Assembly (NCBI GenBank): GCA_039933215.1
Contig: JBDTOO010000005.1
Coordinates: 22,990-86,989 of the forward strand
Direction of reading: 5' to 3'
Length of the DNA stretch: 64,000 bases
From: Acidobacteriota bacterium
GTDB taxonomy: Bacteria; Acidobacteriota; Thermoanaerobaculia; UBA5066; Gp7-AA6
Of this stretch, positions 11,015 through 58,715 are shown piece by piece. How positions within the stretch are numbered: the stretch's first letter is position 1; every line of letters starts with the position of its first letter. A model generated the notes under the pieces. It was not told where the DNA came from. It worked only from the letters and a program-made list of their open reading frames with translations, and ran no database searches. The translations under genes and the position numbers were made by a program.

Positions 11015-11030
11015 GCTCCCGCGGAAAAAG

Positions 11031-12187: not shown

Positions 12188-14053
12188 GTGCCGGCCATCG
12201 CATGCGTCCTCCTCCTTCTCGTATCCCCCATGACGGCTCCCGGGCCGCCCATTCCCGTGCCCGCCCCCATACCCGTGCCGGTGGCGGCGCCGACCGCCGC
12301 TCCGACGCCGTCACCGACCCCGGCCGGCCCGCGCACCGTCGCCCGAATCGTCGAGGAATACATCGAGCGCGACTTCGAGATGTTTCCGAGCCGCTCGACG
12401 GAGGCGGGACGCCACGAGCGCGACGAAGACCTCGAAGATCTGTCGAAGGAGAAGCGGGACCGGTGGGTCGCCTGGAACCGGAGCCTCGCCGGAGACCTGC
12501 GACGGGCCCTCCTCCGGCCGGGTGTCTCGCGCGACGACCGGCTCGACGCGGAGCTCGTGGGACGGGAAGCCGAGCGGCAGATCCAGGAGCTCGCGGTTCT
12601 CCGCCGTCCCGAACGGGATCCTCTCTACTGGACGAACATCGCCGCGAACGCGGCCGTGTTCCTCCTGGTCCGCGAGGACCTCCCGCTCCGACAACGCCTG
12701 GAAGCGGTCCGCAAGCGCGTCCGGCGGATCCAGCGGCTGGCGCGCCAGGCGGAGGAGACCCTCGGCGCAACGCCGCCGTCCGACATTCCGCCCGAGCTCT
12801 GCACGATCGCGGCGTCGCAGGCCCGAGCGTCGGCGGCCTTTTACCGCGACGGTTTTCCGAAACTGTATCCCGCCTACGACGCCGAAGCGCGCGCCGCGGC
12901 GATCATCGCGGAACGCTCTCTCGACCGGCTGGCCGCGTTCCTGGAGCAGCTGGCCGGCCGCGCGACGGCGTCGCCTCGCCTGCGGGAACGCTACGCGGAG
13001 ACCCTGCGGATCGCGACGGGGGAGAAAAGCCCGGCCGCGCTCCAGCGCCGCGCCGAGGCGGATCTCGCCGCGAAGAGGCGGGAGGCGGCCGCGTACGGCC
13101 GCTCGGTCTGGGGGGATGTGATGCCGGGAGAGGCGGCGCCCGAGGAAGACTCCCGGCTCCTGGCCCGGCTCTTCGCCCGCGTCGCGCAAGACGGAGCCGC
13201 GACGACCGAAGAGTTCGTGGACGACTATCGGAAGATCGTCGCGGACCTCGACAAGTTCCTTCACGAGCGGGACATCGTGACGCTGCCGGAGCCCCTGACG
13301 CTCCGGACGGATCGGTCGCCGGCTTATTTCGTCGGCCAGAGCGTGGGCGGGGTGTATCCCGCCGGCCCCTACGCCCCGGGGATGGACACGCTCTGGTATC
13401 TGCCCACGCCTCCCGACTCGGCGACCGACGAGGCGCGGAAGGGTTTCTTCCGCGACTTCAACCACCACTTCAACGTGATGATCACGTCGCACGAGATTCT
13501 TCCCGGCCACTATCTCCAGCTGAAGCGCGCGGCGCTTTTGCCGCGGAAGGTCCGCGCGCTCTTCCCCGACGGCGTCTACGTCGAGGGCTGGGGCACCTTT
13601 TGCGAGAGGCTGATGCTCGATCTCGGCTGGGGCGGGCCTCTCGACCGGCTCGCGCACCTGAAGAAGCAGATGGAGAACATCGCGCGCGCCATCGTCGACG
13701 TCCGTGTTCACACCGGCGAGATGAGCCGCGCGGACGTGATCCGGTTCGTGAAGGAGGACGCGCTGCAGGACGACCAGTTCGCGTCCAACATGTGGACACG
13801 CGCGATCACGAGCCCGACGCAGATCACGACGTATTACATCGGGTACGCCCAGGTGCGCGGGCTGTTCGAGGACGTCCGGAAGCAGCAGGGCGCGTCTTTT
13901 TCTCTCAAGGAATTCATGGACGGGATGATGGCGGACGGCCCGGTTCCCGTACGGCACTACCGGGAGCGGATGCGCGGCGCCGGTCGAGCCGGGGCCTCGA
14001 AGAAAGCCCGTCTCGGGCCCCTCCCTGGAATTCCGGCGCCCGCCCCCGGTTAG
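12188..14053 (+). CDS. DUF885 family protein (putative metallopeptidase-like), secreted, Pro-rich N-terminal linker
   Basis: GTG start. HEILPGHYLQ matches the DUF885 HExxPGH motif. About 620 aa, typical for the family. Confidence 0.75.
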   Translation: MPAIACVLLLLVSPMTAPGPPIPVPAPIPVPVAAPTAAPTPSPTPAGPRTVARIVEEYIERDFEMFPSRSTEAGRHERDEDLEDLSKEKRDRWVAWNRSLAGDLRRALLRPGVSRDDRLDAELVGREAERQIQELAVLRRPERDPLYWTNIAANAAVFLLVREDLPLRQRLEAVRKRVRRIQRLARQAEETLGATPPSDIPPELCTIAASQARASAAFYRDGFPKLYPAYDAEARAAAIIAERSLDRLAAFLEQLAGRATASPRLRERYAETLRIATGEKSPAALQRRAEADLAAKRREAAAYGRSVWGDVMPGEAAPEEDSRLLARLFARVAQDGAATTEEFVDDYRKIVADLDKFLHERDIVTLPEPLTLRTDRSPAYFVGQSVGGVYPAGPYAPGMDTLWYLPTPPDSATDEARKGFFRDFNHHFNVMITSHEILPGHYLQLKRAALLPRKVRALFPDGVYVEGWGTFCERLMLDLGWGGPLDRLAHLKKQMENIARAIVDVRVHTGEMSRADVIRFVKEDALQDDQFASNMWTRAITSPTQITTYYIGYAQVRGLFEDVRKQQGASFSLKEFMDGMMADGPVPVRHYRERMRGAGRAGASKKARLGPLPGIPAPAPG

Positions 14054-14073
14054 CGTTCCGGCAGGAGGCCCCG

Positions 14074-14403
14074 ATGCGGCGATTAATTTTTTTGTGCGTG
14101 GTGCTTCTGGTTCCGGGCTCGTTTCTTGGAGCGGCGGAGGTCTTCGGGACCATCAGCGAGAACGGAAAGCCCGTTCCCCGCGGCGTCGCCGTGAAGCTCG
14201 ATTGCGCGGGAGTGGCGGCTTCCGGCGCGACGGATGAGTTCGGCTCCTACAGCGTGAAAACGGCGTCGACGGGAGACTGCCGTCTGACCGTCGAGTACAA
14301 GAAGTCGACACCCTCTCTCAAGGTGGCGCTCTACGAGAAGCCGGCCCGCTACGATCTCGTCGTGAAGGACGCCGCGGGCAAGGTCACCGTCGCGAGGAAG
14401 TGA
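14074..14403 (+). CDS. Small secreted protein, carboxypeptidase-regulatory-like / Cna-B-type fold
   Basis: AGGAGG 6 nt upstream of the ATG. Signal peptide MRRLIFLCVVLLVPGSFLGAAEV. ...GTISENGKPVPRGVAVKLDCAGVAASGATDEFGSYSV... Confidence 0.5.
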   Translation: MRRLIFLCVVLLVPGSFLGAAEVFGTISENGKPVPRGVAVKLDCAGVAASGATDEFGSYSVKTASTGDCRLTVEYKKSTPSLKVALYEKPARYDLVVKDAAGKVTVARK

Positions 14404-15362
14404 TGGCCGAGGCGCCCGGCCCGCGTCACCGCGACGCGTGGGAGAAGTCCGACATCATCTTGAAGCCGGTCGGCGGCCTTCTCACCGCCGTCGCCGTTGC
14501 GGTGCTGGGTCTCTGGACTTCGAGCTATCTGCGGGAGCGAGAAGGCCGCGACGCGGCCCTGCGCGAGCGCATGCAGACGAGCGACACGAACGCGCGCCTC
14601 TATTCGGAGCTCACGAGCCGCCGCGAAGAGTCCGAGAGCGCGCTGCGCAAGGACATGTTCACGTCGATCATCAATTCGTTTCTGCGCGAGGGTCCCGCGA
14701 CGGCCGAGCAGAAGATGCTGAACCTCGAGCTGCTGGTCTATAACTTTCACGAGTCGCTGAACCTGAAGCCGCTCTTTCTTCACATTCAGAGAGAAGTGCG
14801 GGGCACCCCCCGGCAGGCCGAGTACCTCGAGAGGCTGCACCAGGTGGCGGAGCAGGTCATCCACAAGCAGATGCTCGTGATCGGCGACGGAGGCGAGACG
14901 TTCGACGCGACCATCGACACGAAGAATCTCGCGTTCCCGGACTCCGACTCTGAGACCGCCGCGTCCGCCATCGCGAGAGACCTGTCCGTCGACGGCATCC
15001 GGCGCAACGTGAAGCTCGAGATCGTCTCGGCCGACCCCGCGAACGAGGCGATCCAGCTCCGCATGACGATCCGCACCGCCGAGGCCGGCCGCGTCGAGAC
15101 GAGCGCGACGGACTTCTGGCTCGGACACTTCGACTTTCCGATGATCGACAACACGCGCCTGCCGCACGACCAGCGCCTCGCCGTCGTCCTGAACAATTTC
15201 GACGCGAAGCGGGGCGTCGCCGACGTCACGGCCGCGCTCTTCCCGGGCAAGTATGCCGCCCTGCGGGAAAAGCCGTACTACGACGAGATCCTGGCCAAGC
15301 TCCTCGCGGCGAACAGAACCGTAACGACCGAGCCAACGCCCGTCCCGACGCGGCAGCCGTAG
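14403..15362 (+). CDS. Hypothetical single-pass membrane protein
   Basis: ATG overlaps the stop of the upstream small gene (TGATG). One TM segment LLTAVAVAVLGLWTSSYL. No family recognised. Confidence 0.55.
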   Translation: MAEAPGPRHRDAWEKSDIILKPVGGLLTAVAVAVLGLWTSSYLREREGRDAALRERMQTSDTNARLYSELTSRREESESALRKDMFTSIINSFLREGPATAEQKMLNLELLVYNFHESLNLKPLFLHIQREVRGTPRQAEYLERLHQVAEQVIHKQMLVIGDGGETFDATIDTKNLAFPDSDSETAASAIARDLSVDGIRRNVKLEIVSADPANEAIQLRMTIRTAEAGRVETSATDFWLGHFDFPMIDNTRLPHDQRLAVVLNNFDAKRGVADVTAALFPGKYAALREKPYYDEILAKLLAANRTVTTEPTPVPTRQP

Positions 15363-16701: not shown

Positions 16702-17814
16702 GTGGCGGTCGCGGTGCCCCCGCCTCCCGTCTTCTCCGTCACCCGGCTGACGCTCCACGTTCTCGGGCTCGTCCTCGCCCTCGCCGCCCTGCTCTGGATG
16801 CTTCGACGGCTCGAAGGGGTCCTTCTGCTCCTGATCGTGTCCATCTTCTTCGCGTACCTGATCGCTCCTCTCGTCTCGCTCATGCGGCGCCCGCTCGTCC
16901 TGCGCGGCCGGCCGCACGCCCTGCCGCTCCCCGCCGCGATCGCAGCGGTCTACGTCGTGATCTTCGGCGCGCTGGCGATCGCGGCCTGGCTTCTCCTGCC
17001 GGTCGTTACGGCCGAGTTCGAGCAGCTCGCCGCCGAGGCGCCGGCGCACCTCGCGAGCGCGCAGGCCCGCCTCCAGTCTCTGCAGCACTACGAGCGAACG
17101 CATCTCCCGAAAGGAATGCGCGACGCCGTGAACGCCGCGGTCGATCGCTCCATCCAGGGCGCGGCCGGCGCCGTTCAGGGCGCCGTCCTCCCGTTTCTCG
17201 GCACGGTCCTGGGCTATTTGCCGTGGCTCGTGCTCGTTCCGATCCTCGCGCTCTTCATGCTCAAGGACGCGGATCTCTTCCGCCAGGCGGCTCTCCGAGT
17301 CATTCCCCGCGGCCGCCTGCGCTGGCGCGGCGACGACTTCTTTCAGGACGTCAACGCCACGCTCGCCGCCTACGTGCGCGCGCAGCTCATCGCGTCGCTC
17401 TTCATCGGCGCCGCCTGCACCATCGGATTCGCCCTGATCGGCGTTCCCTACGCGGTGGTGCTCGGTATCGTCGCCGGCGTGCTCGAGTTCATTCCGCTGG
17501 CGGGCCCGTTGACCGTCGCGGCCCTCGCCATCCTCTTCGCGAGCTTCCATTCGCCGGGGCAGGCCGTCGCGGCCCTCGTTTTCCTAGGAGTGCTTCGGAT
17601 CATCGAGGACTACGTCGTGTATCCGAGAATCATCGGCCGCGGGATCCACCTGCATCCGCTGGCGATCATCCTGGCGATCCTCTGCGGCGTGGAGCTCGGC
17701 GGGCTCGCGGGGATCTTCCTCTCGATCCCCGTCGTGGCGATCGTGTCCGTGGCGTTCCGCCACTGGCGAGAGCACCGAGCCGAGGACGCCGGCCTCGCCA
17801 TCGCGAACTCCTAA
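16702..17814 (+). CDS. AI-2E family transporter (PerM/YhhT, UPF0118)
   Basis: Multi-TM protein. Conserved C-terminal region VLGIVAGVLEFIPLAGP...IIEDYVVYPRIIG. Start is uncertain: GTG 16702, GTG 16714 or TTG 16654 are all in frame. Confidence 0.75.
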   Translation: MAVAVPPPPVFSVTRLTLHVLGLVLALAALLWMLRRLEGVLLLLIVSIFFAYLIAPLVSLMRRPLVLRGRPHALPLPAAIAAVYVVIFGALAIAAWLLLPVVTAEFEQLAAEAPAHLASAQARLQSLQHYERTHLPKGMRDAVNAAVDRSIQGAAGAVQGAVLPFLGTVLGYLPWLVLVPILALFMLKDADLFRQAALRVIPRGRLRWRGDDFFQDVNATLAAYVRAQLIASLFIGAACTIGFALIGVPYAVVLGIVAGVLEFIPLAGPLTVAALAILFASFHSPGQAVAALVFLGVLRIIEDYVVYPRIIGRGIHLHPLAIILAILCGVELGGLAGIFLSIPVVAIVSVAFRHWREHRAEDAGLAIANS

Positions 17815-19205
17815 CGCTTCACGGCTCCCGCAGCTGCCGGGAGATATTTCTTCCGGATCTTCGCGACGACACCGACGTTACGGTCCGCGACTTCGGAGAT
17901 CTGGTACTCGATCGTGGCCCCGAGGAGAATCGCCGTCTCGGACGCCGTCAGACCGTAGTCCTGCTGAAGCCAGCCCGCGAGGTCCGACCCGGCGTCGCGG
18001 AAAGCCTGGTCGAGGGAGCCGGCGAGCCCCATCGCCATCAAGTGTTCCGCGTTCTCGACGCGGGGTCCCGGAATGCGCTTTTCGCGGAGCAGGTCGACGG
18101 AGAGCTCGACGTCCAGGGAGGTCTCGAGCGCGTTGCCGTTCAATTCTCCGTCGCCCTGGAGCGCGTGCCCGTCGCCGACGTAGATGAGCGCCCCCGGCTG
18201 ACCGACCTGCAGATACACCGTGGCTCCCTCGCGGACCTCGCTGAAGTCCATGTTGCCGCCGATACGGCCGGAGTCGCCCGTTCGAATTGGCGCCCCGCCG
18301 AAACCGGGAGCGACGGCGACGCAGCCGAGCATCGGCCGGACGGGGACGGCGAGCCCTTTCAGGCGTTCCGTCGGTTTCGCCGGCGACGCGGTGCCTTTGT
18401 CGAGGTCGAGACTCCAGACGACGCTCTTGAAATCATTTTCGGGATGCTCGCTCGCGTAGTCGGTCGTGAGCGCGCGGTCGACGATCCCGTCGTCGCTGAT
18501 CGCGGTGGCGCGGTTCAGCCGTAGCTTTCGAATGTGGATCGCGACGACGTCTCCCGGCATGGCCCCCTCCACGTAGAAGGGTCCGGTCTGGGGGTTGCCT
18601 CCGAGCACTCGCGTTCTCATCTTCTCGTCGACGCCGCCCGCGTCGACCGTCTTCGTTCGCACCACGTCGCCCGGCCAGATGCGGAGCACCGGCGGTATCG
18701 AGGCGGAAAAGACGCGGTGGAACTCGGACGGGTCGAAGTCGATCGTCCGCGGGCCCGAGGGACGCGCGGCGTCCGGCGGAATGCGCCGGGCGCGCCAGGG
18801 CGCGGGAGGCTCCTCGCCCCAGACTTCGGGGCCCGAGACCACGACGGTCCCGGAGATCGCCTCTCCTTCGACGCGGCCCGTATAAAGGGCCTTCTCTCCG
18901 CCCTCATTCACCTCGAAGCGGACGGCGCCTTTGTCCGAAGTGCCGGCGATCGGCAGCCGCTTGCCCCGCCGCGAGATCCAGCCGGTGATCCGCCCCTTGT
19001 CGATCTCGAGAGCCATCCGTTCGTGGCCCTCGTTTCCGAAGATGATCGTGGCGAGGTCCCACTCTCGGGCGGGAGCCGCCGGCGTGGCCGGGGGTGAAGC
19101 CTCCGGGGAGGCCGCCGCGGATGCGAAGGAAGCGAAGAGGGTCAGAGCGAGAGAAGGCGGGAGGGCTCGAACGAGCCTCGGGAGAAGTCGGCGAGAGTTG
19201 GGCAT
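17811..19205 (-). CDS. Acetamidase/formamidase family amidohydrolase (FmdA/AmdA), secreted
   Basis: GDGHALQGDGELNGNALE is the family-typical region. Signal peptide. Stop overlaps the end of the AI-2E gene. Confidence 0.8.
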   Translation of the reverse strand: MPNSRRLLPRLVRALPPSLALTLFASFASAAASPEASPPATPAAPAREWDLATIIFGNEGHERMALEIDKGRITGWISRRGKRLPIAGTSDKGAVRFEVNEGGEKALYTGRVEGEAISGTVVVSGPEVWGEEPPAPWRARRIPPDAARPSGPRTIDFDPSEFHRVFSASIPPVLRIWPGDVVRTKTVDAGGVDEKMRTRVLGGNPQTGPFYVEGAMPGDVVAIHIRKLRLNRATAISDDGIVDRALTTDYASEHPENDFKSVVWSLDLDKGTASPAKPTERLKGLAVPVRPMLGCVAVAPGFGGAPIRTGDSGRIGGNMDFSEVREGATVYLQVGQPGALIYVGDGHALQGDGELNGNALETSLDVELSVDLLREKRIPGPRVENAEHLMAMGLAGSLDQAFRDAGSDLAGWLQQDYGLTASETAILLGATIEYQISEVADRNVGVVAKIRKKYLPAAAGAVKR

Positions 19206-19235
19206 TTGGGTCCTCCGGTGTGCGGGGACTCTACT

Positions 19236-19460
19236 CCGTCGCCTCCGCGCTCGCTGCGCGACCGCTGCGGCTCCCGCAGCGTGAGGCTCCTCCGTCCGTC
19301 GCCTCCGCGGTCGCTTTGCGACCGCTCCGGCTCCCGCAGCGTGAGGCTCCTCCCTACCGTCGCCTCCGCGCTCGCTGCGCGAGCACTCCGGCTCCCGCCG
19401 CGTGAGGCTCCTCCCTCCCTTCGGTCGGGAGACTCCTCACGCGGCGAGCGGTCATCGAGG
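19236..19460 (+). repeat. Tandem array of three ~60-bp family-2 units ending in the hairpin partner arm
   Basis: Units CCGTCGCCTCCGCG(C/G)TCGCT(GC/TT)GCGACCGCT(G/C)CGGCTCCCGCAGCGTGAGGCTCCTCC begin at 19236, 19296 and 19357. They are directly abutting, so not CRISPR-like. Confidence 0.8.
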
Positions 19461-19641: not shown

Positions 19642-20310
19642 ATGGCTCATCCGGCACCGCTTTTCCTCGGCTCCGTCTCGATGGCGGTCCTTCTGGGAGG
19701 CCTGGTCGCGGGCTCCGCCGAGGGAGCCGCTCCCCGCCGTCCCGCCGGCTCGCACCACCCCGTCCGCGAGCGGATGAATGCGTACGTGCTCTCGCAGGGG
19801 GACCACACGATGAGCTCCGACGCCTCCGTCGAGGAGATCGAGTCGCTGCGCGACGAATGGTCCGGCGACTTCCTCTGGGTCCGCCGCGGCGATCGGAAGT
19901 TTCTGATCCGCGACCTGCCCACCGTGAAAGAGGCCCGGACCTTCTTCGCTCCCATGCAGGCGCTCGATCCGGAGAGGCACGCCCTCGAGCGGCGCCAGCA
20001 GGCGATTCAGGAGGAAGAGAGGGACCTCGATCGGGAAGAGGAAGCGATCGAGGAGGAGATTCAGGACATGGACGATCGGGAAGACGACGATCGATCTCTT
20101 CCCGCGGCGGACCGCGATGATCTCGAGCGGCGGCTGCGCGACGTGAGAGCGAAGATGCGGGGCGTCGAGGACCGCGAACGGGCGCTCGACGCGGACGAAA
20201 CCGCGCTCGACCGGCGTTCGGACGCGCTCGAGGCGAAGGCGGAGGCCGCGCTCAGGGCTCTCATCGACCGGGCACTCGAGAAGGGTCTGGCCCGGCCGAT
20301 CGGCGACTAG
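19642..20310 (+). CDS. Hypothetical secreted protein with highly acidic coiled-coil C-terminal half
   Basis: RBS GGAGGGA upstream. Signal peptide MAHPAPLFLGSVSMAVLLGGLVAGSAEG. E/D/R-rich coiled-coil segment. Confidence 0.55.
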   Translation: MAHPAPLFLGSVSMAVLLGGLVAGSAEGAAPRRPAGSHHPVRERMNAYVLSQGDHTMSSDASVEEIESLRDEWSGDFLWVRRGDRKFLIRDLPTVKEARTFFAPMQALDPERHALERRQQAIQEEERDLDREEEAIEEEIQDMDDREDDDRSLPAADRDDLERRLRDVRAKMRGVEDRERALDADETALDRRSDALEAKAEAALRALIDRALEKGLARPIGD

Positions 20311-21965
20311 CGCGCGGGCCGCGGGCGCGCCTCGACCCGCCGGGCGAGTCCTGCGGCGGTCGAGCTCTCGAAAAATTCGCGCACCGGGATCTCGATCCCG
20401 AACGCGTCCCGGATGCGGGAGATCGCCCGGATGACCAGCAGGGAATCCCCGCCTCGGTCGAAGAAGTCGTCGTCGGCGGCCATTTGCGCCACGCCCAGGA
20501 TCCCGGCGAGCAGGGACGCGATCCGCCGCTCGACGGCGTCGTCCGGAAGCGGGCCTGCGAGCCCTGCCGCCTCCGCCGCGGGGACGCTGCCGGGGGCCGG
20601 GGCCGCCCCGCCCGACAGAAGATCGGTGAGCAGGCATTCCGGATCGGTGGCCACGCGCTCCGCGAGCGCTCGGAGTTCCTCCCCGAGGCGGACGACGTCG
20701 TCCGTTTCGAAGAGATCGGTCGCGTAGACGAAGCGCGCGCCGATCTCCCCGGCACCGGCGACGAGGTCCATCTCGAGATCCACCATCGCGACGCGGCTTT
20801 CCGCCGGCTCCACCCCGACGGTGAGAGGCCCGGATCCCGGGGGCCGGCGCGGGACGTTTCTGAAGTTCATCATCATCTGGAAGAGCGGCGGATGGTTCGC
20901 GCTCCGCTTCGGCTGGACCTCCTGGACGACGCGCTCGAAAGGGACGTCCTGATTCTCGTAGGCCTTGAGGGCCGCCGTCCGGACGCGGCGCAGGAGCCCT
21001 GAGAACGAAACGTCTCCGGACAGATCCGCGCGCAGGACGACGGTGTTGATGAAGCAGCCGATGAGGTTTTCCGTATCGACCTGCCCGCGTCCCGCCACCG
21101 GTACGCCGAGCAGAAAATCCCGGCGGCCGCTCCGGCGCGCCAGGAGCACCTGGAACAGCGCGAGCGCCGCCATGAAGATCGTCACGCCCTGGCTCCGCGC
21201 GAGAGCCTTCAGCCGGGCACTCAGCTCGACGCCGAACGAGACGTCTTCGAAGCCCGCCCCGAACGACTCCCGCGCCGGGCGCGGGCGCGCGGAGGGCAGG
21301 TCGAGGAGGACGGGAGCGCCGGCGAGCTTTCGTTTCCACCAGGCGAGCTGCCGCGCCGCCTCGGGCCGCCGCATCCGTTCCCTCTGCCGTCGGGCGTACT
21401 CGCGGTAGGGGAGGGACGGCTCGGGCAGCGCGGACGGGCGTCCCGCGGCGAAGGCCTCGGAAAGCGCCTCGATCTCCGCGACGAGGACCGTCATCGACCA
21501 GGCGTCGAAGACGGCGTGATGGACGTTCCAGAGGAGCCGGTGATCGTCTTCTTCCCATCGGACGAGCCGCGCTCGCCAGAGCGGTCCGCGGGCGAGATCG
21601 AACGGCCGGGCATCCTCCTCCTCCCGCTCGCGGAGCCGGCGCTCGCGCTCGGGCTCTGGCAGGCCGGAGAGATCCTCGAAGGGGAGCGCCACGTCCGCCG
21701 GCGCCGGGAGGACGATCTGCTCGAGCGAAGCGTCATTCCAGCGGATCACCGTCCGGAGCGGCTCGTGGCGGCGCACGATCTCCCGGAGGACGCCCGCGAG
21801 CGTCTCGAGCCGCAGCGGCCCGCGCAGGCGAAGACGGGAAGGGCGCTGGAAGACGCGGCTTCCCGGCTCCATCTGCTCGAAGAACCAGATCCGCTGCTGG
21901 GAAAACGACACGGGTCCGGTGTGGCTTCCGGAGGGAGACCCGGCGCGGGGGCCGGAGGCCGTCAT
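20307..21965 (-). CDS. NRPS-like condensation domain + peptidyl carrier protein (C-T didomain)
   Basis: C1 motif SFSQQRIWFF. C3 motif HHAVFDAWS (HHxxxD). PCP motif FFDRGGDSLLVIRAI. ATG overlaps the stop of the upstream A-T gene by 4 nt. Confidence 0.85.
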   Translation of the reverse strand: MTASGPRAGSPSGSHTGPVSFSQQRIWFFEQMEPGSRVFQRPSRLRLRGPLRLETLAGVLREIVRRHEPLRTVIRWNDASLEQIVLPAPADVALPFEDLSGLPEPERERRLREREEEDARPFDLARGPLWRARLVRWEEDDHRLLWNVHHAVFDAWSMTVLVAEIEALSEAFAAGRPSALPEPSLPYREYARRQRERMRRPEAARQLAWWKRKLAGAPVLLDLPSARPRPARESFGAGFEDVSFGVELSARLKALARSQGVTIFMAALALFQVLLARRSGRRDFLLGVPVAGRGQVDTENLIGCFINTVVLRADLSGDVSFSGLLRRVRTAALKAYENQDVPFERVVQEVQPKRSANHPPLFQMMMNFRNVPRRPPGSGPLTVGVEPAESRVAMVDLEMDLVAGAGEIGARFVYATDLFETDDVVRLGEELRALAERVATDPECLLTDLLSGGAAPAPGSVPAAEAAGLAGPLPDDAVERRIASLLAGILGVAQMAADDDFFDRGGDSLLVIRAISRIRDAFGIEIPVREFFESSTAAGLARRVEARPRPAR

Positions 21966-23794
21966 CCCGGAGCGGCCGCGGCGCCGGGTCCGGGCGGGGA
22001 CTTCGCCTCGACGAGCCGCGCGAGCTTCTCGATCGTCCCGGCCTCGAAGAGCTCGAGGAGAGACACTTCGACTCCGAGCCGCTCGTGGATCCGCGCGGCG
22101 ATCTGGGCGGCGAGGATCGAGTCACCGCCCGCCGCCACGAAGTCTTCCGCCGCATCCAACGGGTCCACCCGCAGGATCTCGGTCCACGTCCGCGCAATCT
22201 CCTGCTCGACCGCGCCTCGAGGCGGCCGCGGCTCCGAGGCGGAACCGGCAGCAGGAGAGGCGGATGTCACGCCGAGCTTCTCCGCGAGCCCGATGCGCTG
22301 GAGTTTGCCGGTCGGGCCCCTGGGGATCTCGGTCACGACGACGATGCGGCGGGGCACCTTGAAATCCGCCAGGTGCTTCGACGCGAATTCGCGGAGCTCC
22401 GACGGCGTCGCCCGGGCGCCCTCCTGGAGGACCACCGCCGCTCCCACCTCTTCGCCGAGACGCGGATCTGGGATCGCGAAGGCCACCGCCTGGGCGACCG
22501 CGGGATGCTCGAGCAGCACTTCGTCGATCTCGCGCGGCGAGATCTTCTCTCCGCCGCGGTTGATGATCTCCTTCAGACGCCCCGTCAGGGTCAGGTAGCC
22601 CTCGGCGTCGAGATGCCCCTGATCGCCCGTGCGAAACCACCCCCGAAGGTACGCGCTCGCATTCGCCGCGGGATTTCCGACGTAGCCCGCCGTGACGTTC
22701 GGCCCGCGGATGACGACCTCGCCCCGCACGCCCGGGCCCGCGAGCTCTCCCTTCTCGTCGAGAACCGCGATCTCCGGTCCCGCGGCGCGCCCGACCGTGC
22801 CGGGCTTGCGGGTCTCCGGGGGGAGAGGGTTGCTCGCCATCTGGTGCGAGGCCTCCGTCATACCGTAGGCCTCGACCACCGGAACGGCAAACGTGCTCTC
22901 GAGCTCGGACAGCACGGCCGGCGGCAGCGATGCGGAGGAGGACCGGACGAAGCGCAGGCGCCCCTTCACCGGTTCGCCCTTCGTCCCTCTCGCGCGCGCG
23001 AGGATCGCCTGGTGCATCGTCGGCACTGCCGTGTACCAGGTCGGCTCAAACTCGCGCATCCAGTCGAAGAACTTCGGGGACTGGAATCCCGGCGCGCACA
23101 CGACGCTTCCCCCGGCGCGAAGCGACGCGAGCAGAGCGGCCACGAGGCCGTGGATGTGAAAGAGAGGCATGACATTCAGGCAGCGGTCGGAGCTCGTGAG
23201 GGCGAGCGTCCGGACGATGTGGCCCGCCGAGGCTCGCAGGTTCGCGCCCGTCAGGGCGACGAGCTTGGGGCGGGACGTCGTGCCGGACGTGTGGAGGAAG
23301 AGGGCGGGGTCGCCCGGTTCGGAGGGGGATGTTGCCGCCGCGCCGGCTGGCGCCCCGGCGGCGGCGATCAGCCGGAACGCTCCCGCCTGCTCCCCGTCGG
23401 GCTCGAGCTCCAGGACCCGCACGCCGAGCCGACCCGCCGCACGCCGGGCCGGGGAGTCCCCGCCGGCCGGAAGCACGATCGCACGCGCGGCGAGGTCGGA
23501 CAGATAGAAGACGAATTCCTCTTCACGATACGCGGGGTTCAAGGGAGCGCTCCCCGCGACGGAAGAGATCGCCAGAAACGCGACCGCCATGTCGGGCCCG
23601 TCCGGAAGGCAGATCGCGATGCGATCGCCGCGGCCGATTCCCGAGGCGGAGAGGTCGGCGGCGACGCGGTCGATCCTCTCTCGGAGGCCGCCGCGCGTGA
23701 GGACCGCACGACCGGGCGCGAGGAGCGCGGGTTCGTCCGCGTCCCGAGGTGAGGGGTCCGGCAGGTAACGGTCCGAGGCGCGAACCTTCTTCAC
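21962..23794 (-). CDS. Adenylation (AMP-binding) domain + peptidyl/acyl carrier protein (A-T didomain; FAAL/NRPS-like)
   Basis: LHTSGTTSRPK (A3), YGMTE (A5), GWFRTGDQG...GRLKEIINRGGEKIS (A7/A8), PTGKLQR (A10), then PCP AAGGDSILAAQIAARI. GTG start. Confidence 0.85.
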   Translation of the reverse strand: MKKVRASDRYLPDPSPRDADEPALLAPGRAVLTRGGLRERIDRVAADLSASGIGRGDRIAICLPDGPDMAVAFLAISSVAGSAPLNPAYREEEFVFYLSDLAARAIVLPAGGDSPARRAAGRLGVRVLELEPDGEQAGAFRLIAAAGAPAGAAATSPSEPGDPALFLHTSGTTSRPKLVALTGANLRASAGHIVRTLALTSSDRCLNVMPLFHIHGLVAALLASLRAGGSVVCAPGFQSPKFFDWMREFEPTWYTAVPTMHQAILARARGTKGEPVKGRLRFVRSSSASLPPAVLSELESTFAVPVVEAYGMTEASHQMASNPLPPETRKPGTVGRAAGPEIAVLDEKGELAGPGVRGEVVIRGPNVTAGYVGNPAANASAYLRGWFRTGDQGHLDAEGYLTLTGRLKEIINRGGEKISPREIDEVLLEHPAVAQAVAFAIPDPRLGEEVGAAVVLQEGARATPSELREFASKHLADFKVPRRIVVVTEIPRGPTGKLQRIGLAEKLGVTSASPAAGSASEPRPPRGAVEQEIARTWTEILRVDPLDAAEDFVAAGGDSILAAQIAARIHERLGVEVSLLELFEAGTIEKLARLVEAKSPPGPGAAAAPG

Positions 23795-23846
23795 GGTGCG
23801 CAGAATACGATGCGCGATCCGTGCCCGCCGGAGAGACCTCGCCGTC

Positions 23847-26006
23847 TCAGCTCGCGGTGCGCGCCGGGGCAGGCGCGTTCTCCCGCGCGGCGCCGTCGAT
23901 GCCGAGCTGCCGGAGGAGAAAGGCCTGGTCGAAGGCGCGCTCCCGGAGCTTGTCGTACCGGCCCGACGAGCCGCCGTGTCCGCCCGCCATGTTGATCTTG
24001 AAGAGGAGCGGATTCCGGTCGGTCTTCATCGCCCGAAGCTTCGCGACGTACTTCGCCGGCTCCCAGTACATGACCTGGCTGTCGTCCCACGACGTCTTGA
24101 CGAGGATCGTCGGGTAGTCCTTCCCCGCGATGTTGTCGTACGGGCTGTATGACCGCATGTAGACGTACTGCTCCCGGATCTTGGGGTTGCCCCACTCCTC
24201 GAACTCGGGAACCGTCAGGGGAACCGACTCGTCGAGCATCGTGTTGATCACGTCCACGAACGGGACGTGGGAGAGCACGACCTTGAACAGGTCGGGTCTC
24301 ATGTTCGTCACGGCTCCCATCAGAAGGCCGCCCGCGCTTCCGCCTTCGATCGCCAGCCGATCCCGCGACGTGTAACGGTCCGCGATGAGCTGCTCGGCGG
24401 ACGCGATGAAATCCGTAAAGGTGTTCTTCTTCGACAGCATCCGTCCCTGGTCGTGCCACTTCTTGCCGAGATCGCCGCCGCCGCGGATGTGCGCGAGCGC
24501 GAGGACGAACCCGCGGTCCAGGAGGCTGATCTCGTTCGAGTCGAACTCGACGTCGGAGGGCGCGCCGTAGGAGCCGTAGGCGCCGAGGAGGAGCGGCGCC
24601 TTGCCGTCCGCGACGAAGCCCTTGCGGTAGACGATCGAGATCGGGATCTTCGTGCCGTCGGAGGCCGTGGCGTACCTCCGCTCCGAGGTGTAGCGGGAGG
24701 GATCGTAGCCGCCGAGGACTTCACGCCGCTTGAGGAGCGTCTTCTCGCCGGTGACGACGTCGTAGTCGTAGACCGACGGCGGCGTGGTGAACGACTCGTA
24801 GGCGATGCGCAGCCTGTTCGTGTCGAACTCGCGATTGTTCTCGGCTCCGGCCGAATAGATCGCCTCGGGGAACTCGAGGCGGCGCGTGGCGCCGGTCTTG
24901 AAATCGAGGATCGAGATCCGCGGAAGCGCGTCCTGGCGCTCGTACACGGCTCCCCATCCCGCGAAGAGGTCGAAGTCTTCGAGCATGACGTCGTCGCGGT
25001 GCGCGATGAGCTCCTTCCAGTTCTCGGGTCGCGGATCCGACGCGGGCGCGACGACGAGACGCTTGTTCCGGCCCCTGTCGTTGGTGAGGACGTAGAACAT
25101 GTCTCCGCGGTGGTCGACGAGGTACTCTCGGTCGTGGACCCGGGGCGCGACCATCCGGAGCGGCGCGGTGGGGGCTTCGGCCTTCAGGTATCGCACCTCG
25201 GATGTCGTCAGACTGCCCGATTCGAAGAAAAGGTACTCGCCGCTGCGGGAGCGGTGCACGCCGACGCCGAACATCTCGTCCTTCTCCTCGTGGAGGAGGG
25301 TGTCCCCTTTCGTGTCGGTACCCACGGAGTGCCGCCACAGCCGGTTGGGCCGCTTCGCGAGGTCCGTGGTCGCGTAGAAGATCGTCTTGTTGTCGGCCGC
25401 CCAGGCCACGGACCGCACGCGCTCGGCCGTGTCCGGCAGGACCCGGCCCGTCTTCAGGTCCTTGACGTGGAGGTCGTAGTCGCGAAAGCCTGTCTTGTCG
25501 GTCGTGTACGCGAGCGAGTTCCCGTCGTCGCTCACGCGCCAGGCCCCGACCGACATGAACTTCTCGCCTCGGGCGAGCTCGTTCACGTCGAGGACGATCT
25601 CCTCCGGCGCGTCGAGCGTCTTCTTGCGGCAGTAGATGGGATAGGCCTTCCCCTGCTCCGTCCGCGAGTAATAGAAATAGCCGCGGTCGCGGAACGGAAC
25701 GGAGAGGTCGGTCTCCTTGATGCGCCCGAGCATCTCGGCGTAGAGCGTCTTCTGAAGCGGCTCGGTCGGCTTCATGACCGCGTCCGTGTAGGCGTTCTCC
25801 GCTTCGAGATACGCGCGTACCTGGGGATCCTTCTTCTCGCGCATCCAGAAGTAGTCGTCCTGCAGGGTGTCGCCGTGGATCGTGATCGACCGCGCGATCT
25901 TTTTCGCGACCGGCGGTTTCGGCGGAGCGACGGACTCTTCGGCGTCAAGCACGGGCACGAGGACACTCATTGCGAGTGCCGTCACCAGAGCGGTTCGGCG
26001 GGACAT
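23847..26006 (-). CDS. Oligopeptidase B / S9A prolyl oligopeptidase family, secreted
   Basis: N-terminal propeller region DDYFWMREKKDPQVRAYLEAENAYT. Catalytic Ser motif GGSAGGLLMG. AGGAGG RBS. Signal peptide. Confidence 0.85.
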   Translation of the reverse strand: MSRRTALVTALAMSVLVPVLDAEESVAPPKPPVAKKIARSITIHGDTLQDDYFWMREKKDPQVRAYLEAENAYTDAVMKPTEPLQKTLYAEMLGRIKETDLSVPFRDRGYFYYSRTEQGKAYPIYCRKKTLDAPEEIVLDVNELARGEKFMSVGAWRVSDDGNSLAYTTDKTGFRDYDLHVKDLKTGRVLPDTAERVRSVAWAADNKTIFYATTDLAKRPNRLWRHSVGTDTKGDTLLHEEKDEMFGVGVHRSRSGEYLFFESGSLTTSEVRYLKAEAPTAPLRMVAPRVHDREYLVDHRGDMFYVLTNDRGRNKRLVVAPASDPRPENWKELIAHRDDVMLEDFDLFAGWGAVYERQDALPRISILDFKTGATRRLEFPEAIYSAGAENNREFDTNRLRIAYESFTTPPSVYDYDVVTGEKTLLKRREVLGGYDPSRYTSERRYATASDGTKIPISIVYRKGFVADGKAPLLLGAYGSYGAPSDVEFDSNEISLLDRGFVLALAHIRGGGDLGKKWHDQGRMLSKKNTFTDFIASAEQLIADRYTSRDRLAIEGGSAGGLLMGAVTNMRPDLFKVVLSHVPFVDVINTMLDESVPLTVPEFEEWGNPKIREQYVYMRSYSPYDNIAGKDYPTILVKTSWDDSQVMYWEPAKYVAKLRAMKTDRNPLLFKINMAGGHGGSSGRYDKLRERAFDQAFLLRQLGIDGAARENAPAPARTAS

Positions 26007-26093: not shown

Positions 26094-28346
26094 CTACCCC
26101 TGGAACGCGTACGAGAACTTCAGGAAGAGCTGCCGCCCGACGGGGACGAGGTCGTATCGGCCGGGCGGAGCTCCGGATCCCGGAGCGGGCGCGAGCGCAC
26201 GCGTGTCCCCGTACCCGAGAAAGAAAACGGTCTGCCAGTTGAGCTTGTAGGCAAAGAGGGCGGAGCCGTCGAAGTCGCCCGTCTTCCGCCCGACCGGGCT
26301 CGTGGAGAGGGTCGGGTCCCGCGTCGTCGCGACGTACTGGGCGATCGCGCGGAAAAACGCACGCGCGGTGAAGGTGTACGTCGCCTTCAGGCGCGCGACG
26401 TCGGCGGTGAAGAGGCGTCCGCCCTCGACGTTCAGCCACCGGCGGTCGCCGATGAAAGAGAGCTCGAGATGGTCCGTCGGCCGCGTCGTGACGGAGACGG
26501 ACAGGTCTCCGCCGTGCCCGGTCCGGCCGTCCTCGAAATCGATCTCGCTTCCGAGGTTTCCGTTGAAGATGATGCGGGTCAGCCGGCGGGACGGGTCGAC
26601 CGAGATGGACCAGACGGCCTGCGTGCGCTCGAGGACCCTGTCCCCGGTGCGCACCGCGTCGACGTCGACGCCGAGAAACCCGGCGAGGTTGAAGGCCCCG
26701 TTGAAATCGACGGCCGGGGAGAAGCGGCGGGACACGAGCCGGCCCGCACGGTCGGCCACGTAGTCCGCTCCGAGCCGCGCGAAGAGCCTCCGGAAGACGC
26801 CCTCGGGATAGAAGGTATAGCCGGCCTGCCCCGTCACCTGACGGATCCCGACCTGCGGGACGTAGCCGTCGTCCGCGCGGAACCCGTCGGCGAAGTCGCG
26901 GTACCGGACCTGCCACGCGAGCGTTCGCGTCTGATGGCTCCAGGCGGCGTCGAGCGCCCCGCCCGACAACGAGCGCCCGTCCCACTCGGCCGCGAGCTGC
27001 GGTCGGTCGGGGGTCTGCGTCTGGCTGTAGAGAAACTGCGCCGTCAACTGGTCGCGGTCGCTCGGGCGCCACTGCAAGTCCGGACCGAGGACGCGGTTGT
27101 GGCCCCCGCCGGAGACCTCGCGGTCGGTGGCGAGGAGCCCGGCGAAAGAGGGTCCGAAGTCGTGCCGCACGCGGGCGATCGCGGCAATCGAGCGGAAGTC
27201 CTGCGGAGCGGCGCCGGACGACTCCGCGCCCGGGAGGATGACGAGGCCTCCGCCCCGGTCTTCGCTCACGAGGAAGGTGTATGCGGAATCGCCATCCTTT
27301 CCCGTGAGGCGCCCGCCCCAGCGCGGCGACGTGATGGTACGGGTATACACGGCCTGGATGGGGGACTGCAGCAGGTCGACGCCTTCGAGAAAAAAGGGCC
27401 GCTTCTCCGGGTAGAAGAGCGCGAAGCGCTGGTTGACGGAGATCTGCGCGACGTCCGACTCGATCTGCGAGAAGTCGGGGTTGATCGTCGCGTCGATGAC
27501 CTTGTCCGGGTCCGGAGTCCATTTGACGTCTCCGCCCGCGTTGCCCCGCGGAGCCGGATAGGAGAAGTCCGAGCGGGGATCGGACCTGTCCTCCGGGCGT
27601 CCGTCGGCCTTTCCCGTCACGTAGGGCGCGGCGACGAAGTGGCCCGCGGAGGGAAGGCCCGAGAGGCCGGTGATCGTCCGCATGTGACAGATCAGGCAAT
27701 TGGATCCCCGGGGAATCGGGCTCGAGTGGAACGCATAGCGAAACTCGCGGGGGTAGTTGCGCCAGAAGAGGATCCCCCAGGACTGCGGGTCCTGCCTTCC
27801 GTAGCGCAGCGACGAGAACGGAATGCGGATCTCCGCCGTCCACCCTTGCGGCGTGACGCTGGCGGCCGAGTCGTAGAAGAAGTCCGGCGAGAAATCCTCC
27901 GTCTGGTTCGCTTCGTTCCAAACGGCGTCGCCCTGAATCCCCCGGGGGTTCACGCGGAACTCCACGGCCGACCGGCGGTCGTTGCGCGGATCGAGGAAGA
28001 CCGCCACGTTGTCGTCGGTCCCGAGGACCTGGTCCCGGTCGACGTACGGCGCCCGGATCTGAGGGGGCCGCGGGTCGTCGCATCGGATCCCGATGTACAG
28101 GGACTTCTCGTCGTATGCGAGGAGGACCGAAGTGCGGAACCGGGCGGGGAGGTTGTCGCCCGGCTGCGTCTCCCAGAAATCCTCCATGCTGGCGGCGCCC
28201 TGCCAGCCGGGATCGGACAGGCTGCCGTCGACGTGGATCGGTCCGGCAGTTCGGGAGATCGCGAGCGGCGGCGGGATCTCGGGAGTCTGAGACAGGAGCG
28301 GTGCGGAAGAGGCAAAGACGGCGAGCACGATCCCGACGCGGCGCAT
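26094..28346 (-). CDS. DUF5916 family protein with N-terminal CBM9-like carbohydrate-binding domain, secreted
   Basis: Start at MRRVGIVLAVFASSAPLLSQ (signal peptide). IHVDGSLSDPGWQGAA...LYIGIRCDDP matches the CBM9/DUF5916 pattern. About 750 aa. Confidence 0.7.
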   Translation of the reverse strand: MRRVGIVLAVFASSAPLLSQTPEIPPPLAISRTAGPIHVDGSLSDPGWQGAASMEDFWETQPGDNLPARFRTSVLLAYDEKSLYIGIRCDDPRPPQIRAPYVDRDQVLGTDDNVAVFLDPRNDRRSAVEFRVNPRGIQGDAVWNEANQTEDFSPDFFYDSAASVTPQGWTAEIRIPFSSLRYGRQDPQSWGILFWRNYPREFRYAFHSSPIPRGSNCLICHMRTITGLSGLPSAGHFVAAPYVTGKADGRPEDRSDPRSDFSYPAPRGNAGGDVKWTPDPDKVIDATINPDFSQIESDVAQISVNQRFALFYPEKRPFFLEGVDLLQSPIQAVYTRTITSPRWGGRLTGKDGDSAYTFLVSEDRGGGLVILPGAESSGAAPQDFRSIAAIARVRHDFGPSFAGLLATDREVSGGGHNRVLGPDLQWRPSDRDQLTAQFLYSQTQTPDRPQLAAEWDGRSLSGGALDAAWSHQTRTLAWQVRYRDFADGFRADDGYVPQVGIRQVTGQAGYTFYPEGVFRRLFARLGADYVADRAGRLVSRRFSPAVDFNGAFNLAGFLGVDVDAVRTGDRVLERTQAVWSISVDPSRRLTRIIFNGNLGSEIDFEDGRTGHGGDLSVSVTTRPTDHLELSFIGDRRWLNVEGGRLFTADVARLKATYTFTARAFFRAIAQYVATTRDPTLSTSPVGRKTGDFDGSALFAYKLNWQTVFFLGYGDTRALAPAPGSGAPPGRYDLVPVGRQLFLKFSYAFQG

Positions 28347-28426
28347 CGTCTCTTGTACGCGGTTCCGGCCTTCAAGGTTCGCCGGAGTGGCAGGATTCGT
28401 GAACACTCCGCGAGCGGGGGCGACGC

Positions 28427-32672: not shown

Positions 32673-33019
32673 GGGAGTGATCGGCGGGAATGCTTCCTCG
32701 CCGCTCGGGGGAGAGGGTCGAAGTGAGGGGCTCTGTCGGATGCGACCCGCCGTTCCTCGCGCGCCGCATTCCCAGATGGCCCGATGGCCCGATGGCCCGA
32801 TGACCCGATCGCCGCCGATGGCCCGATTCCCCAGATCCTTCCCCCGGTGCGAGAAATGGTCACCTCCAGCCTTCATGGACGGACGGAATTCGCCACAGTG
32901 CCGCTCTCCTTCGCCTCCAACACGAGCATCCGCAATGGGATCGGCGTCCGCGTGTTCTGGCGCTCCGATTGCGTAGGAAGGATTTCAAATACAAAGGAAG
33001 CCAACCCGGTCATACGGTC

Positions 33020-34351
33020 ATGGTCTCTCCCATCTCGCTCCCGCTGCTTCGCCGATCCGGCAGCCTCTCGCTGACACTGATCGCCCTGTTCGCTCTGCGG
33101 TGCGCGTCCGCCCCCGCTCCCGAGGTTGAGAGCGCCGCCGTCCGATTCGTCGAGCAACGCGACCCGGTTCCCGCGGACGCGGAGAAGTCGGGCCCCGTCG
33201 AGTTCCGCAAGCTCCTCCTGAAGATGCCGCGGGACCACGTCGTGGGCTCCGTCCAGAAGGGCCACGCCTGCATCGGCCGGTCACCGCTCACCTGGAAGAG
33301 CGGCCCCGACTCCACCCCCGACGAGGATCTGGGGGACCTCCTCCTCGAGCAACTCTCGTCGGCGGGCTATCCCGTCGTACGGGATCGCAACACTCTCTTC
33401 GACGATCCGCACGCGCGGCGCGCCGAATACGTCATCGCGGGCGTGATCCGCGAGGTCAAGGCCAACGTCTGCTACCCCGATCCGAAGAGCGCCGCAACCG
33501 CGGCGGCCTCGCTGACGGTCGACTGGCAGATCTACTCGCACCGGACCAAGAGCGTGGAGCTCAAGGCGACGACGGAAGGCTCGATCGTTCTGAAGGCTCG
33601 GGAGGAGGCGGGGGCCCAGGCGATCACGGGCGCCTTCGTCTCGGCCGCCCGGAACCTCCTCGCCGAGGGAACCTTCCACGAGCTGGTCTCCGGAGGCGGA
33701 CATGACCGGCTCGCCCGGCCGGAGCGCGAGCCCATCCCGGTCGCATACGAGACGCTGCCCGCGCGGACGCTCGGCAACGTCGAGTCGATCGTGTCCGACT
33801 CACGCATGGGCGTCGTCACGGTGTTCGCCGGCGACTCCATGGGCTCGGGCTTCGTGATCTCCCGGGACGGCTTCGTTCTGACGAACCAGCACGTCATCGG
33901 GCAGTCGCGCGTCGTGCGGGTCCGCTTCGTCACCGGACGGGAGGCCAACGGTGAGGTCGTGCGCTCCGACCGGCTGCGCGACGTCGCCCTGATCAAGCTC
34001 GAGAGCGACATCTATCCATTCCTGCCTCTCGGAGAGTCGGACCGGATTCGTCCCGGCGCGGAAGTCTTCGCGATCGGCACGCCCCTCGCCGAGAACCTCG
34101 GCCAGACGGTGACGAAGGGAATCCTGAGCGGCTACGGCGAGGAGGACGGGCTCCGGATCCTCCGCAGCGACGTCGCCGTCCACCGCGGCAACAGCGGCGG
34201 CCCTCTTCTCGACCACGCCGGGATCGTCGTCGGACTCACCGTCAGCGGCTTCCTGATCATGCCCGAGGGCGTGGGCGTCGGACTCAACTCCTTCATCCCT
34301 ATCGAGGAAGCCCTGCACGCGCTCGTCATCCAGCGGCGCGAGGGGCGCTAA
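33020..34351 (+). CDS. Trypsin-like S1 family serine protease (HtrA-like protease domain, no PDZ), secreted
   Basis: Signal peptide. TNQHV (His), DVALIK (Asp) and GNSGGPLL (Ser) form the catalytic triad context. Confidence 0.8.
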   Translation: MVSPISLPLLRRSGSLSLTLIALFALRCASAPAPEVESAAVRFVEQRDPVPADAEKSGPVEFRKLLLKMPRDHVVGSVQKGHACIGRSPLTWKSGPDSTPDEDLGDLLLEQLSSAGYPVVRDRNTLFDDPHARRAEYVIAGVIREVKANVCYPDPKSAATAAASLTVDWQIYSHRTKSVELKATTEGSIVLKAREEAGAQAITGAFVSAARNLLAEGTFHELVSGGGHDRLARPEREPIPVAYETLPARTLGNVESIVSDSRMGVVTVFAGDSMGSGFVISRDGFVLTNQHVIGQSRVVRVRFVTGREANGEVVRSDRLRDVALIKLESDIYPFLPLGESDRIRPGAEVFAIGTPLAENLGQTVTKGILSGYGEEDGLRILRSDVAVHRGNSGGPLLDHAGIVVGLTVSGFLIMPEGVGVGLNSFIPIEEALHALVIQRREGR

Positions 34352-58704: not shown

Positions 58705-58715
58705 TCGAGACTCCT

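Follow-up and report, generated by a model that had tools for sequence, protein, structure and literature searches.

A short nonribosomal peptide synthetase gene pair with a putative oxalate-type starter module in an Acidobacteriota genome

Layout of the gene pair

Two adjoining minus-strand genes of an Acidobacteriota bacterium encode a nonribosomal peptide synthetase (NRPS) pair, in which an adenylation-carrier (A-T) protein is followed by a condensation-carrier (C-T) protein. They lie in a 64-kb stretch of contig JBDTOO010000005.1, which was analysed as a whole and is called the window below (GC about 69%). Protein matches of 100% identity (P0001 and P0121) place it within an 89-kb contig of an Acidobacteriota metagenome-assembled genome. 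Both carrier serines and the catalytic HH motif are intact, and the pair has no release domain (Table 1). A preliminary description of this DNA had read the pair as a minimal, self-contained module in a probable operon with a secreted oligopeptidase B, suited to making one amide bond, as in the synthesis of N-acyl amino acids or lipoamino acids. Its gene calls hold: both open reading frames (ORFs) are present with the domains it assigned, as are the four-nucleotide overlap between them and the HHAVFDAWS motif of the condensation (C) domain.

The ATGA sequence shared by the stop of the first gene and the start of the second suggests possible translational coupling. In the NCBI annotation of the identical protein, the C-T start is placed 18 codons further downstream, giving 534 amino acids (aa); the ATGA-coupled start is also found in the relative on contig L001, described below. 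Frame analysis based on GC content at third codon positions backs the A-T, C-T and oligopeptidase B genes and makes C-T the last gene on its strand.

The description had also noted the lack of a thioesterase (TE), a reductase (R) and further modules, and independent searches agree with it. A tblastn search with adenylation (A), C, carrier (T), TE and phosphopantetheinyl transferase (PPTase) references returned no further such domain across the window, and Pfam detected neither an R nor a TE domain in the two NRPS genes. An Sfp-type PPTase is likewise missing from the window by tblastn, a result that covers the window only and not the rest of the genome. The promoter scan of the window gave no promoter-like sites, and the terminator scan gave three terminator-like sites against 4.4 expected, which is uninformative.

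Table 1. Features of the window, with the basis of each assignment. Residue numbers refer to the encoded proteins.
Feature	Position	Strand	Basis or remark
Gene 1, A(oxalate-type)-T didomain protein, 610 aa, GTG start	21962..23794	-	ORF and translation; Pfam AMP-binding E 7.5e-72, AMP-binding_C E 5.7e-17, PP-binding E 4.3e-15; identical protein annotated in an Acidobacteriota metagenome-assembled genome (P0121)
Adenylation domain, residues 17-504, oxalyl-CoA-synthetase-like	22283..23746	-	PDB matches, pocket mapping
Pocket residues H213-I214-H215, motif FHIHGL	23144-23161	-	Mapped on AtAAE3 residues of PMC8905533
Pocket residues S286-S287, motif RSSSASL	22925-22945	-	Mapped on AtAAE3
Pocket residues G311-M312 and H317, motif EAYGMTEASHQM	from 22853-22873	-	Mapped on AtAAE3
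K497, motif PTGKLQR	22295-22315	-	Mapped on AtAAE3
Carrier T1, residues 532-595; Ser559 at 22118-22120 (AAGGDSIL)	22010..22201	-	Pfam PP-binding E 4.3e-15
ATGA stop/start overlap of genes 1 and 2	21962..21965	-	Sequence; equal 4-nt overlap at L001 7486-7489
Gene 2, C-T protein, 552 aa, without A domain and without release domain	20307..21965	-	ORF; Pfam Condensation and PP-binding; orthology to L001 protein
Condensation domain, LCL-like, residues 16-447	20625..21920	-	Pfam Condensation E 7.8e-86
Catalytic motif HHAVFDAWS, residues 149-157 of C-T	21495-21521	-	Translation
Carrier T2, residues 481-544; Ser508 at 20442-20444 (RGGDSLL)	20334..20525	-	Pfam PP-binding E 1.7e-16; without cognate A domain in the window
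CTAG common to the stops of gene 2 (-) and the convergent gene (+)	20307..20310	.	Sequence; junction alignments and synteny map against L001
Convergent gene, about 222 aa, bounding the NRPS unit	19642..20310	+	AGGAGG 7 nt 5' of the ATG at 19642; homologous to L001 14542-15225(-)
Oligopeptidase B-like S9 peptidase gene (ptrB), 719 aa, probable signal peptide	23847..26006	-	NCBIfam PRK10115 E 5.5e-186, 620 bits, under the 1313-bit cut-off
FmdA/AmdA-like amidase	17811-19205		
Trypsin-like protease	32804-34351		
S15 X-Pro dipeptidyl peptidase	35539-37647		
Amidase	40380-42902		
Amidohydrolase	50230-52290		
Second S9 peptidase	52340-54847		

The adenylation domain and its carrier-fused family

The A domain carries core motifs of the ANL superfamily (TSGTTSRPK, EAYGMTE, FRTGD, GRLKEIINRGGEKI and PTGKLQR), and its top PDB matches are oxalate-CoA ligases: Arabidopsis AAE3 (AtAAE3, 5IE0) at 457 bits, LsOCS of Lathyrus (6QJZ) at 445 bits and yeast Pcs60 (8AFF) at 385 bits. 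The best match outside this group reaches 217 bits. Identity to Arabidopsis AAE3 is 48.5% over 478 aa. Among NCBIfam models, the A-T protein scores best against the FadD7 family, with 433 bits under a 650-bit cut-off. Every fatty-acid ligase model of that collection also stays under its cut-off, leaving the protein outside the fatty acyl-AMP ligase (FAAL) and fatty acyl-CoA ligase (FACL) types.

The oxalate pocket of AtAAE3 comprises V215-H216, C288-S289, A313-M314, H319 and K500, with S289 and H319 conserved among oxalyl-CoA synthetases (OCSs) only (PMC8905533). At these positions the window A domain has I-H, S-S, G-M, H and K, five of the eight being identical. The equivalents of the OCS-specific Ser289 and His319 and of the catalytic Lys500 (S287, H317 and K497) are all kept, and the remaining three changes, V to I, C to S and A to G, are conservative. 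This pocket is invariant across 120 fused and 24 stand-alone bacterial homologues, the latter 58-64% identical to the window A domain. Stand-alone OCS-like genes in Methyloversatilis (L064, 9944-15776) and Rhodovulum (L074, 6764-12590) adjoin genes for TctA/TctC carboxylate transporters and a PanE/ApbA-family reductase. In M. extorquens, PanE2 acts as a reductase of oxalyl-CoA (PMC8411744), and these contexts look like an operon for oxalate uptake and oxalyl-CoA reduction, fitting a route from oxalate through oxalyl-CoA to glyoxylate.

On this comparative evidence, the A domain is best described as derived from the OCS clade. Because of the clade matches, the kept pocket and the contexts of the stand-alone homologues, its most likely substrate is oxalate and not a fatty acid or an amino acid. 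The acyl donor of the preliminary description, a fatty acid or an amino acid, is at odds with this placement and with a small oxalate pocket that is not FAAL- or FACL-like. That description had also taken kinship with oxalate- or aryl-CoA ligases as speaking against its NRPS-like reading. The kinship is indeed found, yet a T domain is fused to the A domain and a C domain follows. Both carrier serines are present in the window, as the description had supposed, and the phosphopantetheine serine of T1 is conserved in 118 of 118 fused homologues, which argues that this branch of the OCS clade was recruited for carrier loading. In L001, T2 carries GGHS at the carrier motif.

Motifs C1-C7 are readable in the translated C domain. 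Its HHAVFDAWS sequence is a G-to-A variant of HHxxxDG, shared by 4 out of 127 first C domains from the family, among which HHxxxDGWS predominates. The best PDB matches are Txo1/Txo2, the A-T-C fragment 5u89 and the fuscachelin peptidyl carrier protein-condensation (PCP-C) didomain, at 230-276 bits. The 461-aa 'Surfactin synthetase' chains 8f7f/8f7h, which we take to be the starter C domain of SrfA-A, reach only 103-106 bits, compared with 202-276 bits for elongation-type C domains such as the fuscachelin didomain and tyrocidine synthetase 3. Judged from these best matches rather than from a formal phylogeny, and with LCL and starter labels that we assume for the matched chains, the C domain appears LCL-like. 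The starter (lipoinitiation) type, which the preliminary description had left as an option, is disfavoured by the same scores.

Relatives of the C-T protein are scarce. A metagenome scan with this protein found none, and the only close homologue is in L001, the next best sequence being 41% identical. Two other candidates were rejected as comparators. The C-T-TE proteins matched by the C-T query (P0092) belong to another system, which combines a canonical amino-acid A-T protein with a P450 and a free C domain. The A domain of that system shares 28% identity with the window A domain and is without the oxalate pocket. P0080 belongs to an ordinary multimodular line.

Relatives of the A-T protein, by comparison, are very many (57-73% identity), and the best 120 clusters are nearly all fused to a PP-binding domain. 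More than 100 OCS-type A-carrier fusions (Ao-T, with Ao for the oxalate-type A domain) occur across at least ten phyla, including Acidobacteriota, Cyanobacteria, Gemmatimonadota, Poribacteria, Planctomycetota, Chloroflexota, Bacteroidota, Verrucomicrobiota and Proteobacteria. The cyanobacterial carriers are Oscillatoria/Kamptonema, Aerosakkonema, Coleofasciculus and Calothrix. In genome and contig contexts, Ao-T forms the first module of short NRPS lines and is followed by C-A-T-C, C-A-T-TE, C-A-T or longer arrangements. A census of domain content in the 120 best single-protein relatives shows Ao-T-C-A-T-C, of about 2140 aa, as the dominant form (68/120), followed by Ao-T-C-A-T-TE (16/120), Ao-T-C-C-A-T(-TE) (13/120), Ao-T-C-A-T (10/120), Ao-T-C-A-T-C-T(-TE) (5/120) and Ao-T-C-T-TE (1/120). 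The other 7/120 comprise C-Ao-T-C-A-T-TE, proteins with an unassigned insert or tail, and Ao-T-C-C. Proteins of the forms Ao-T-C and Ao-T-TE exist too, Ao-T-C in related Acidobacteriota.

The A domains downstream of the starter have very diverse specificity codes, suggesting that the oxalate-type unit serves generally as a cap at the N-terminus, in most cases linked to a single amino acid. These Stachelhaus-type codes were extracted against a GrsA reference sequence and are indicative only. The amino-acid A domain of L001 (10606-12105), next to the oxalate-type starter, has the code DTEDVGTVVK, and three cyanobacterial lines (L003, L012 and L019) have the near-equal codes DAEDIGTVVK, DAEEIGTVVK and DTEDIGTIVK. 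Their acidic character suggests a basic or diamino acid as substrate. All four lines have extra domains between the first C domain and the A domain (T-C, a second C, or a formyltransferase-like domain). As a separate observation, the A-domain codes of the Ao-T-C-A-T-C proteins (P0244-P0360) are mostly without the usual Asp235, for example GDQIFGL-DK and VDWWVSLVWK, which hints at a non-alpha-amino-acid substrate such as a beta-amino acid.

Probable shortening, selection and competing readings

The closest relative of the A-T protein (P0122, 72-73% identity) lies on contig L001 of another Acidobacteriota metagenome-assembled genome. This contig is syntenic with the window through the His_Phos, DUF5916, oligopeptidase B and A-T genes and, further on, FmdA, with flanks of about 81% nucleotide identity. 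Its second NRPS gene encodes C-T-C-A-T, 1665 aa long. The window C-T protein is 60-61% identical to the first 560 aa of this protein and 38% identical to its second C domain. About 5.4 kb of L001 (about 9175-14535) are missing from the window, comprising C2-A-T3, two small GT2-like ORFs and a 138-aa ORF, and the junction falls exactly at the common CTAG stop (alignments to L001 9059-9226 and 14490-14647). P0002, a more distant protein, aligns colinearly with C-T-C along 900 residues, giving slight support to C-T-C-A-T being the older state. The window form rather likely originated from an A-T / C-T-C-A-T ancestor that lost about 5.4 kb.

Only one other form without the second A domain was found, the Ao-T-C-T-TE protein of Kamptonema formosum/Oscillatoria sp. 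PCC 10802 (L008, 9881-14407), a single isolated gene among housekeeping genes. Its residues 1-1061 are 92-93% identical to Ao-T-C-A-T-TE proteins; some 515-530 residues, the A domain, are then skipped, and the T-TE tail is only 64% identical to those proteins. From these alignments it looks like a derived recombinant rather than evidence for a conserved core. It was therefore rejected as support for a recurrent self-sufficient A-T-C-T core, being a singleton whose close relatives carry the A domain. Most members of the family have both an A domain for the second carrier and a release domain; the window has neither, and its copy is a truncated form, the least complete representative of the family. 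The minimal, self-sufficient A-T/C-T unit of the preliminary description does not fit this picture, since relatives nearly always possess a second, amino-acid-type A domain and L001 has C-T-C-A-T.

Comparison of the window with L001 also informs on selection. Amino acid identity and the ratio of nonsynonymous to synonymous substitution rates (dN/dS) are 86% and 0.13 for ptrB, 72% and 0.24 for A-T, and 61% and 0.32 for C-T, with dS of about 0.6-1.0 across the three genes and about 0.9 for the NRPS pair. The NRPS genes diverge faster than their flanks (61-72% against 80-86% amino acid identity), yet they remain well short of neutrality. In relative-rate tests against several outgroups, changes specific to the window were not in excess; the window/L001 counts for C-T are 50/46, 48/41, 33/33, 36/49 and 42/53, and those for A-T and ptrB are similar. 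Both ORFs are intact over 3.5 kb, with the catalytic motifs, both serines and the ATGA coupling kept. The low dN/dS of the pair, together with the lack of lineage-specific acceleration, argues that it is still under selection, and it is probably maintained for a function rather than a dead remnant. The pattern leaves three possibilities: a very recent deletion, a pair that is still selected, or a window form that is ancestral.

The reading favoured here, with a probability of roughly 0.55, is that the pair represents the initiation part of an oxalate-primed NRPS in shortened form, with ptrB not a component. The A domain would adenylate oxalate and thioesterify it onto its own T1 (Ser559) instead of CoA. 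The LCL-type C domain would then take oxalyl-S-T1 as donor and form an oxalamide (N-oxalyl) bond to an amine. The designed acceptor would be an aminoacyl group on T2, which would have to be loaded in trans since T2 has no A domain of its own. The natural loader in L001 is plausibly the A domain of the C-A-T extension. This extension being absent from the window, the acceptor there would come from an A domain encoded elsewhere or would be a free amine, and release would fall to a trans-acting hydrolase or a downstream partner.

Several points weigh against this proposal. The oxalate assignment is by homology only, and three pocket positions are unlike those of the plant enzyme. The 64 kb hold no A domain, TE, R or PPTase to supply the acceptor or release. 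The C domain shares only 37-49% identity with its counterparts at the first position in other oxalate-type lines, leaving no conserved 'oxalyl-donor' C clade to rely on. That the 5.4-kb difference reflects a loss is only probable, as the syntenic genomes are two only, and L001 shows neither a compositional anomaly in its GC profile nor flanking direct repeats that would indicate the polarity of the change. Pairwise dN/dS is, moreover, a mean over the two lineages that includes the period preceding the deletion.

A wider and more tentative proposal is that the window pair, together with the over 100 fusions related to it, forms an undescribed, phylum-spanning class of oxalate-primed NRPSs making N-oxalyl amino acids or short peptides. 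The window A-T/C-T pair would then be a working unit whose acceptor is supplied in trans or from solution. Candidate roles for such products are those of N-oxalylglycine-type 2-oxoglutarate mimics, toxins like beta-N-oxalyl-L-alpha,beta-diaminopropionic acid (beta-ODAP), and metal chelators.

Less likely than the initiation reading is a non-productive remnant, in which T1 is charged with oxalate but finds neither acceptor nor release, so that the pair is either decaying or burning ATP until a housekeeping thioesterase hydrolyses the intermediate. The missing A domain, TE/R and PPTase, the fuller line in the sister genome, the derived nature of the only other A-less variant and the faster divergence of the NRPS genes would all fit such a state, but reading frames intact at a dS of about 0.9, dN/dS far below 1, balanced substitution counts, and the kept coupling and catalytic motifs make it doubtful. 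A remnant is tenable only with a very recent deletion.

The initiation reading also has an improbable variant with the same architecture and logic, in which some other very small acid takes the place of oxalate as starter, for example oxamate, glyoxylate, glycolate, pyruvate or malonate. The three pocket residues that differ from AtAAE3 (I/S/G for V/C/A) leave room for this, and no literature on oxalate-primed lines was found. A hydroxy or amino acid starter could, moreover, let one A domain charge both T1 and T2, with the C domain making a homodimer, which would explain a T2 without its own A domain. Strict conservation of the Ser289 and His319 equivalents speaks for oxalate instead, as do the stand-alone homologues with the same pocket, whose transporter and PanE-type contexts fit oxalate assimilation. 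For most relatives, moreover, the unit simply caps the N-terminus ahead of a normal C-A-T, where a nucleophile is not required.

The oligopeptidase B gene matches the preliminary description in its local features. It is co-directional with the A-T gene and ends 52 nt upstream of its start, the terminator scan found no terminator-like site between the two, and its product has a hydrophobic, signal-peptide-like N-terminus, in line with the 'secreted' label. Adjacency is kept in L001, and co-transcription with A-T is possible. The proposed operon, however, does not recur: the co-occurrence check found the linkage in the window and L001 only. Among 80 metagenomic ptrB loci (57-71% identity), none of the 41 with at least 2.5 kb downstream has NRPS domains there, and no ptrB homologue was present in the other oxalate-type loci fetched. 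The window is, moreover, unusually rich in hydrolases, which makes a peptidase beside NRPS genes less significant. On this distribution, ptrB is treated as a lineage-specific neighbour by descent, not demonstrably part of the system. The original model of a self-contained pair with oligopeptidase B is therefore very improbable: its single amide bond survives as typical of the wider family, which usually joins a starter acid to one amino acid, but its N-acyl amino acid or lipoamino acid product conflicts with the oxalate-type A domain, nothing is present to load T2, and in so peptidase-rich a region the neighbour is expected by chance.

Other features of the surroundings are recorded here. The product of the convergent gene is hydrophobic at its N-terminus, its C-terminal half is highly acidic and resembles a coiled coil, and a Pfam search with it gave no match. 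It is 50% identical to its L001 orthologue, against 80-86% for neighbouring genes, marking it as fast-evolving. The intergenic region between this gene and the FmdA-like gene (19208-19418) contains about 3.5 tandem copies of a unit of about 60 nt, 71-80% identical, which end in an inverted repeat of 20 nt around a loop of 11 nt (19396-19446). The DUF5916/CBM9 gene is a single 770-aa ORF in the window (26094-28406, minus strand) and two genes (574 and 186 aa) in L001 (859-3155) despite colinear DNA, which suggests that one of the two has a frameshift or was split during annotation. The leftmost part of the window (1403-9106) contains a PhzF-like gene, a major facilitator superfamily transporter gene and a xanthine-dehydrogenase-family set (2Fe-2S subunit, molybdenum-cofactor-binding subunit and XdhC). 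GC content falls from about 0.69 to about 0.645 in 54001-64000, a region with genes for an FHA/Trans_reg_C regulator (58749-59426) and, from 62261 to the end, for a Ser/Thr kinase that has WD40/PD40 repeats.

Significance and relation to known systems

NRPSs as such are known, and the oxalate-type starter is what is unusual and apparently undescribed; the searchable literature yielded no description of an oxalate- or oxalyl-primed NRPS. If the oxalate assignment is true, NRPS lines in several phyla have repeatedly co-opted an enzyme of primary metabolism, oxalyl-CoA synthetase, as their starter module. N-oxalylglycine is a classic inhibitor of 2-oxoglutarate oxygenases, beta-ODAP is a neurotoxin, and oxalamates chelate metals. 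Such bioactivities make the family a concrete and inexpensive target for genome mining. Since the window copy is truncated, fuller relatives offer better entry points, namely the L001-type A-T/C-T-C-A-T, Ao-T-C-A-T-TE and Ao-T-C-A-T-C lines. The window itself is a natural experiment on what stays under selection after an assembly line loses its amino-acid module.

Oxalyl-CoA synthetases (AAE3, LsOCS, Pcs60 and the NCBIfam FadD7 family) share the ANL fold, the pocket determinants and the gate histidine with the window A domain. They are stand-alone proteins of about 510-540 aa that deliver free oxalyl-CoA for catabolism or beta-ODAP synthesis, whereas in the window a carrier is fused and a C domain follows. 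The window A-T protein thus resembles OCS in its predicted adenylation half-reaction, yet by its domain order it is not classed as one, because a PP-binding domain is fused C-terminally and a C domain is putatively coupled to it in translation.

Among NRPSs, the first module of PvdL, an acyl-CoA-ligase-like A domain with a T domain followed by a C domain, is likewise a non-amino-acid ANL-T unit feeding a C domain. PvdL module 1 loads an acyl starter, and the C domain N-acylates the first amino acid; PvdL is also among the PDB matches of the window C domain (213 bits). Unlike lipoinitiation modules, the window starter would be a C2 dicarboxylate instead of a fatty acid, combined with an LCL-like C domain.

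The missing A domain has parallels in modules loaded in trans, as in yersiniabactin HMWP1/2, module 9 of syringomycin SyrE (through SyrB1/SyrC) and viomycin VioI. Like the window C-T protein, these need an A domain located elsewhere. Their trans-loaders are known and encoded in the cluster, while the window has none within 64 kb. Free-standing or terminal C domains of the VibH type, which use soluble amines, would account for the Ao-T-C proteins seen in related Acidobacteriota and for a T2-independent route that may exist in the window. Unlike the VibH type, the window C domain is fused to a carrier with an intact serine, suggesting a tethered acceptor.

A chemical parallel comes from plants. 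The beta-ODAP pathway, whose transfer enzyme is a BAHD acyltransferase, performs the chemistry proposed for the window pair, N-oxalylation of an amine from an oxalyl thioester. Oxalyl-CoA is combined there with L-2,3-diaminopropionate, and PMC8905533 describes the role of OCS in this pathway. The plant route works with free oxalyl-CoA, whereas the window pair would employ a carrier protein and a C domain.

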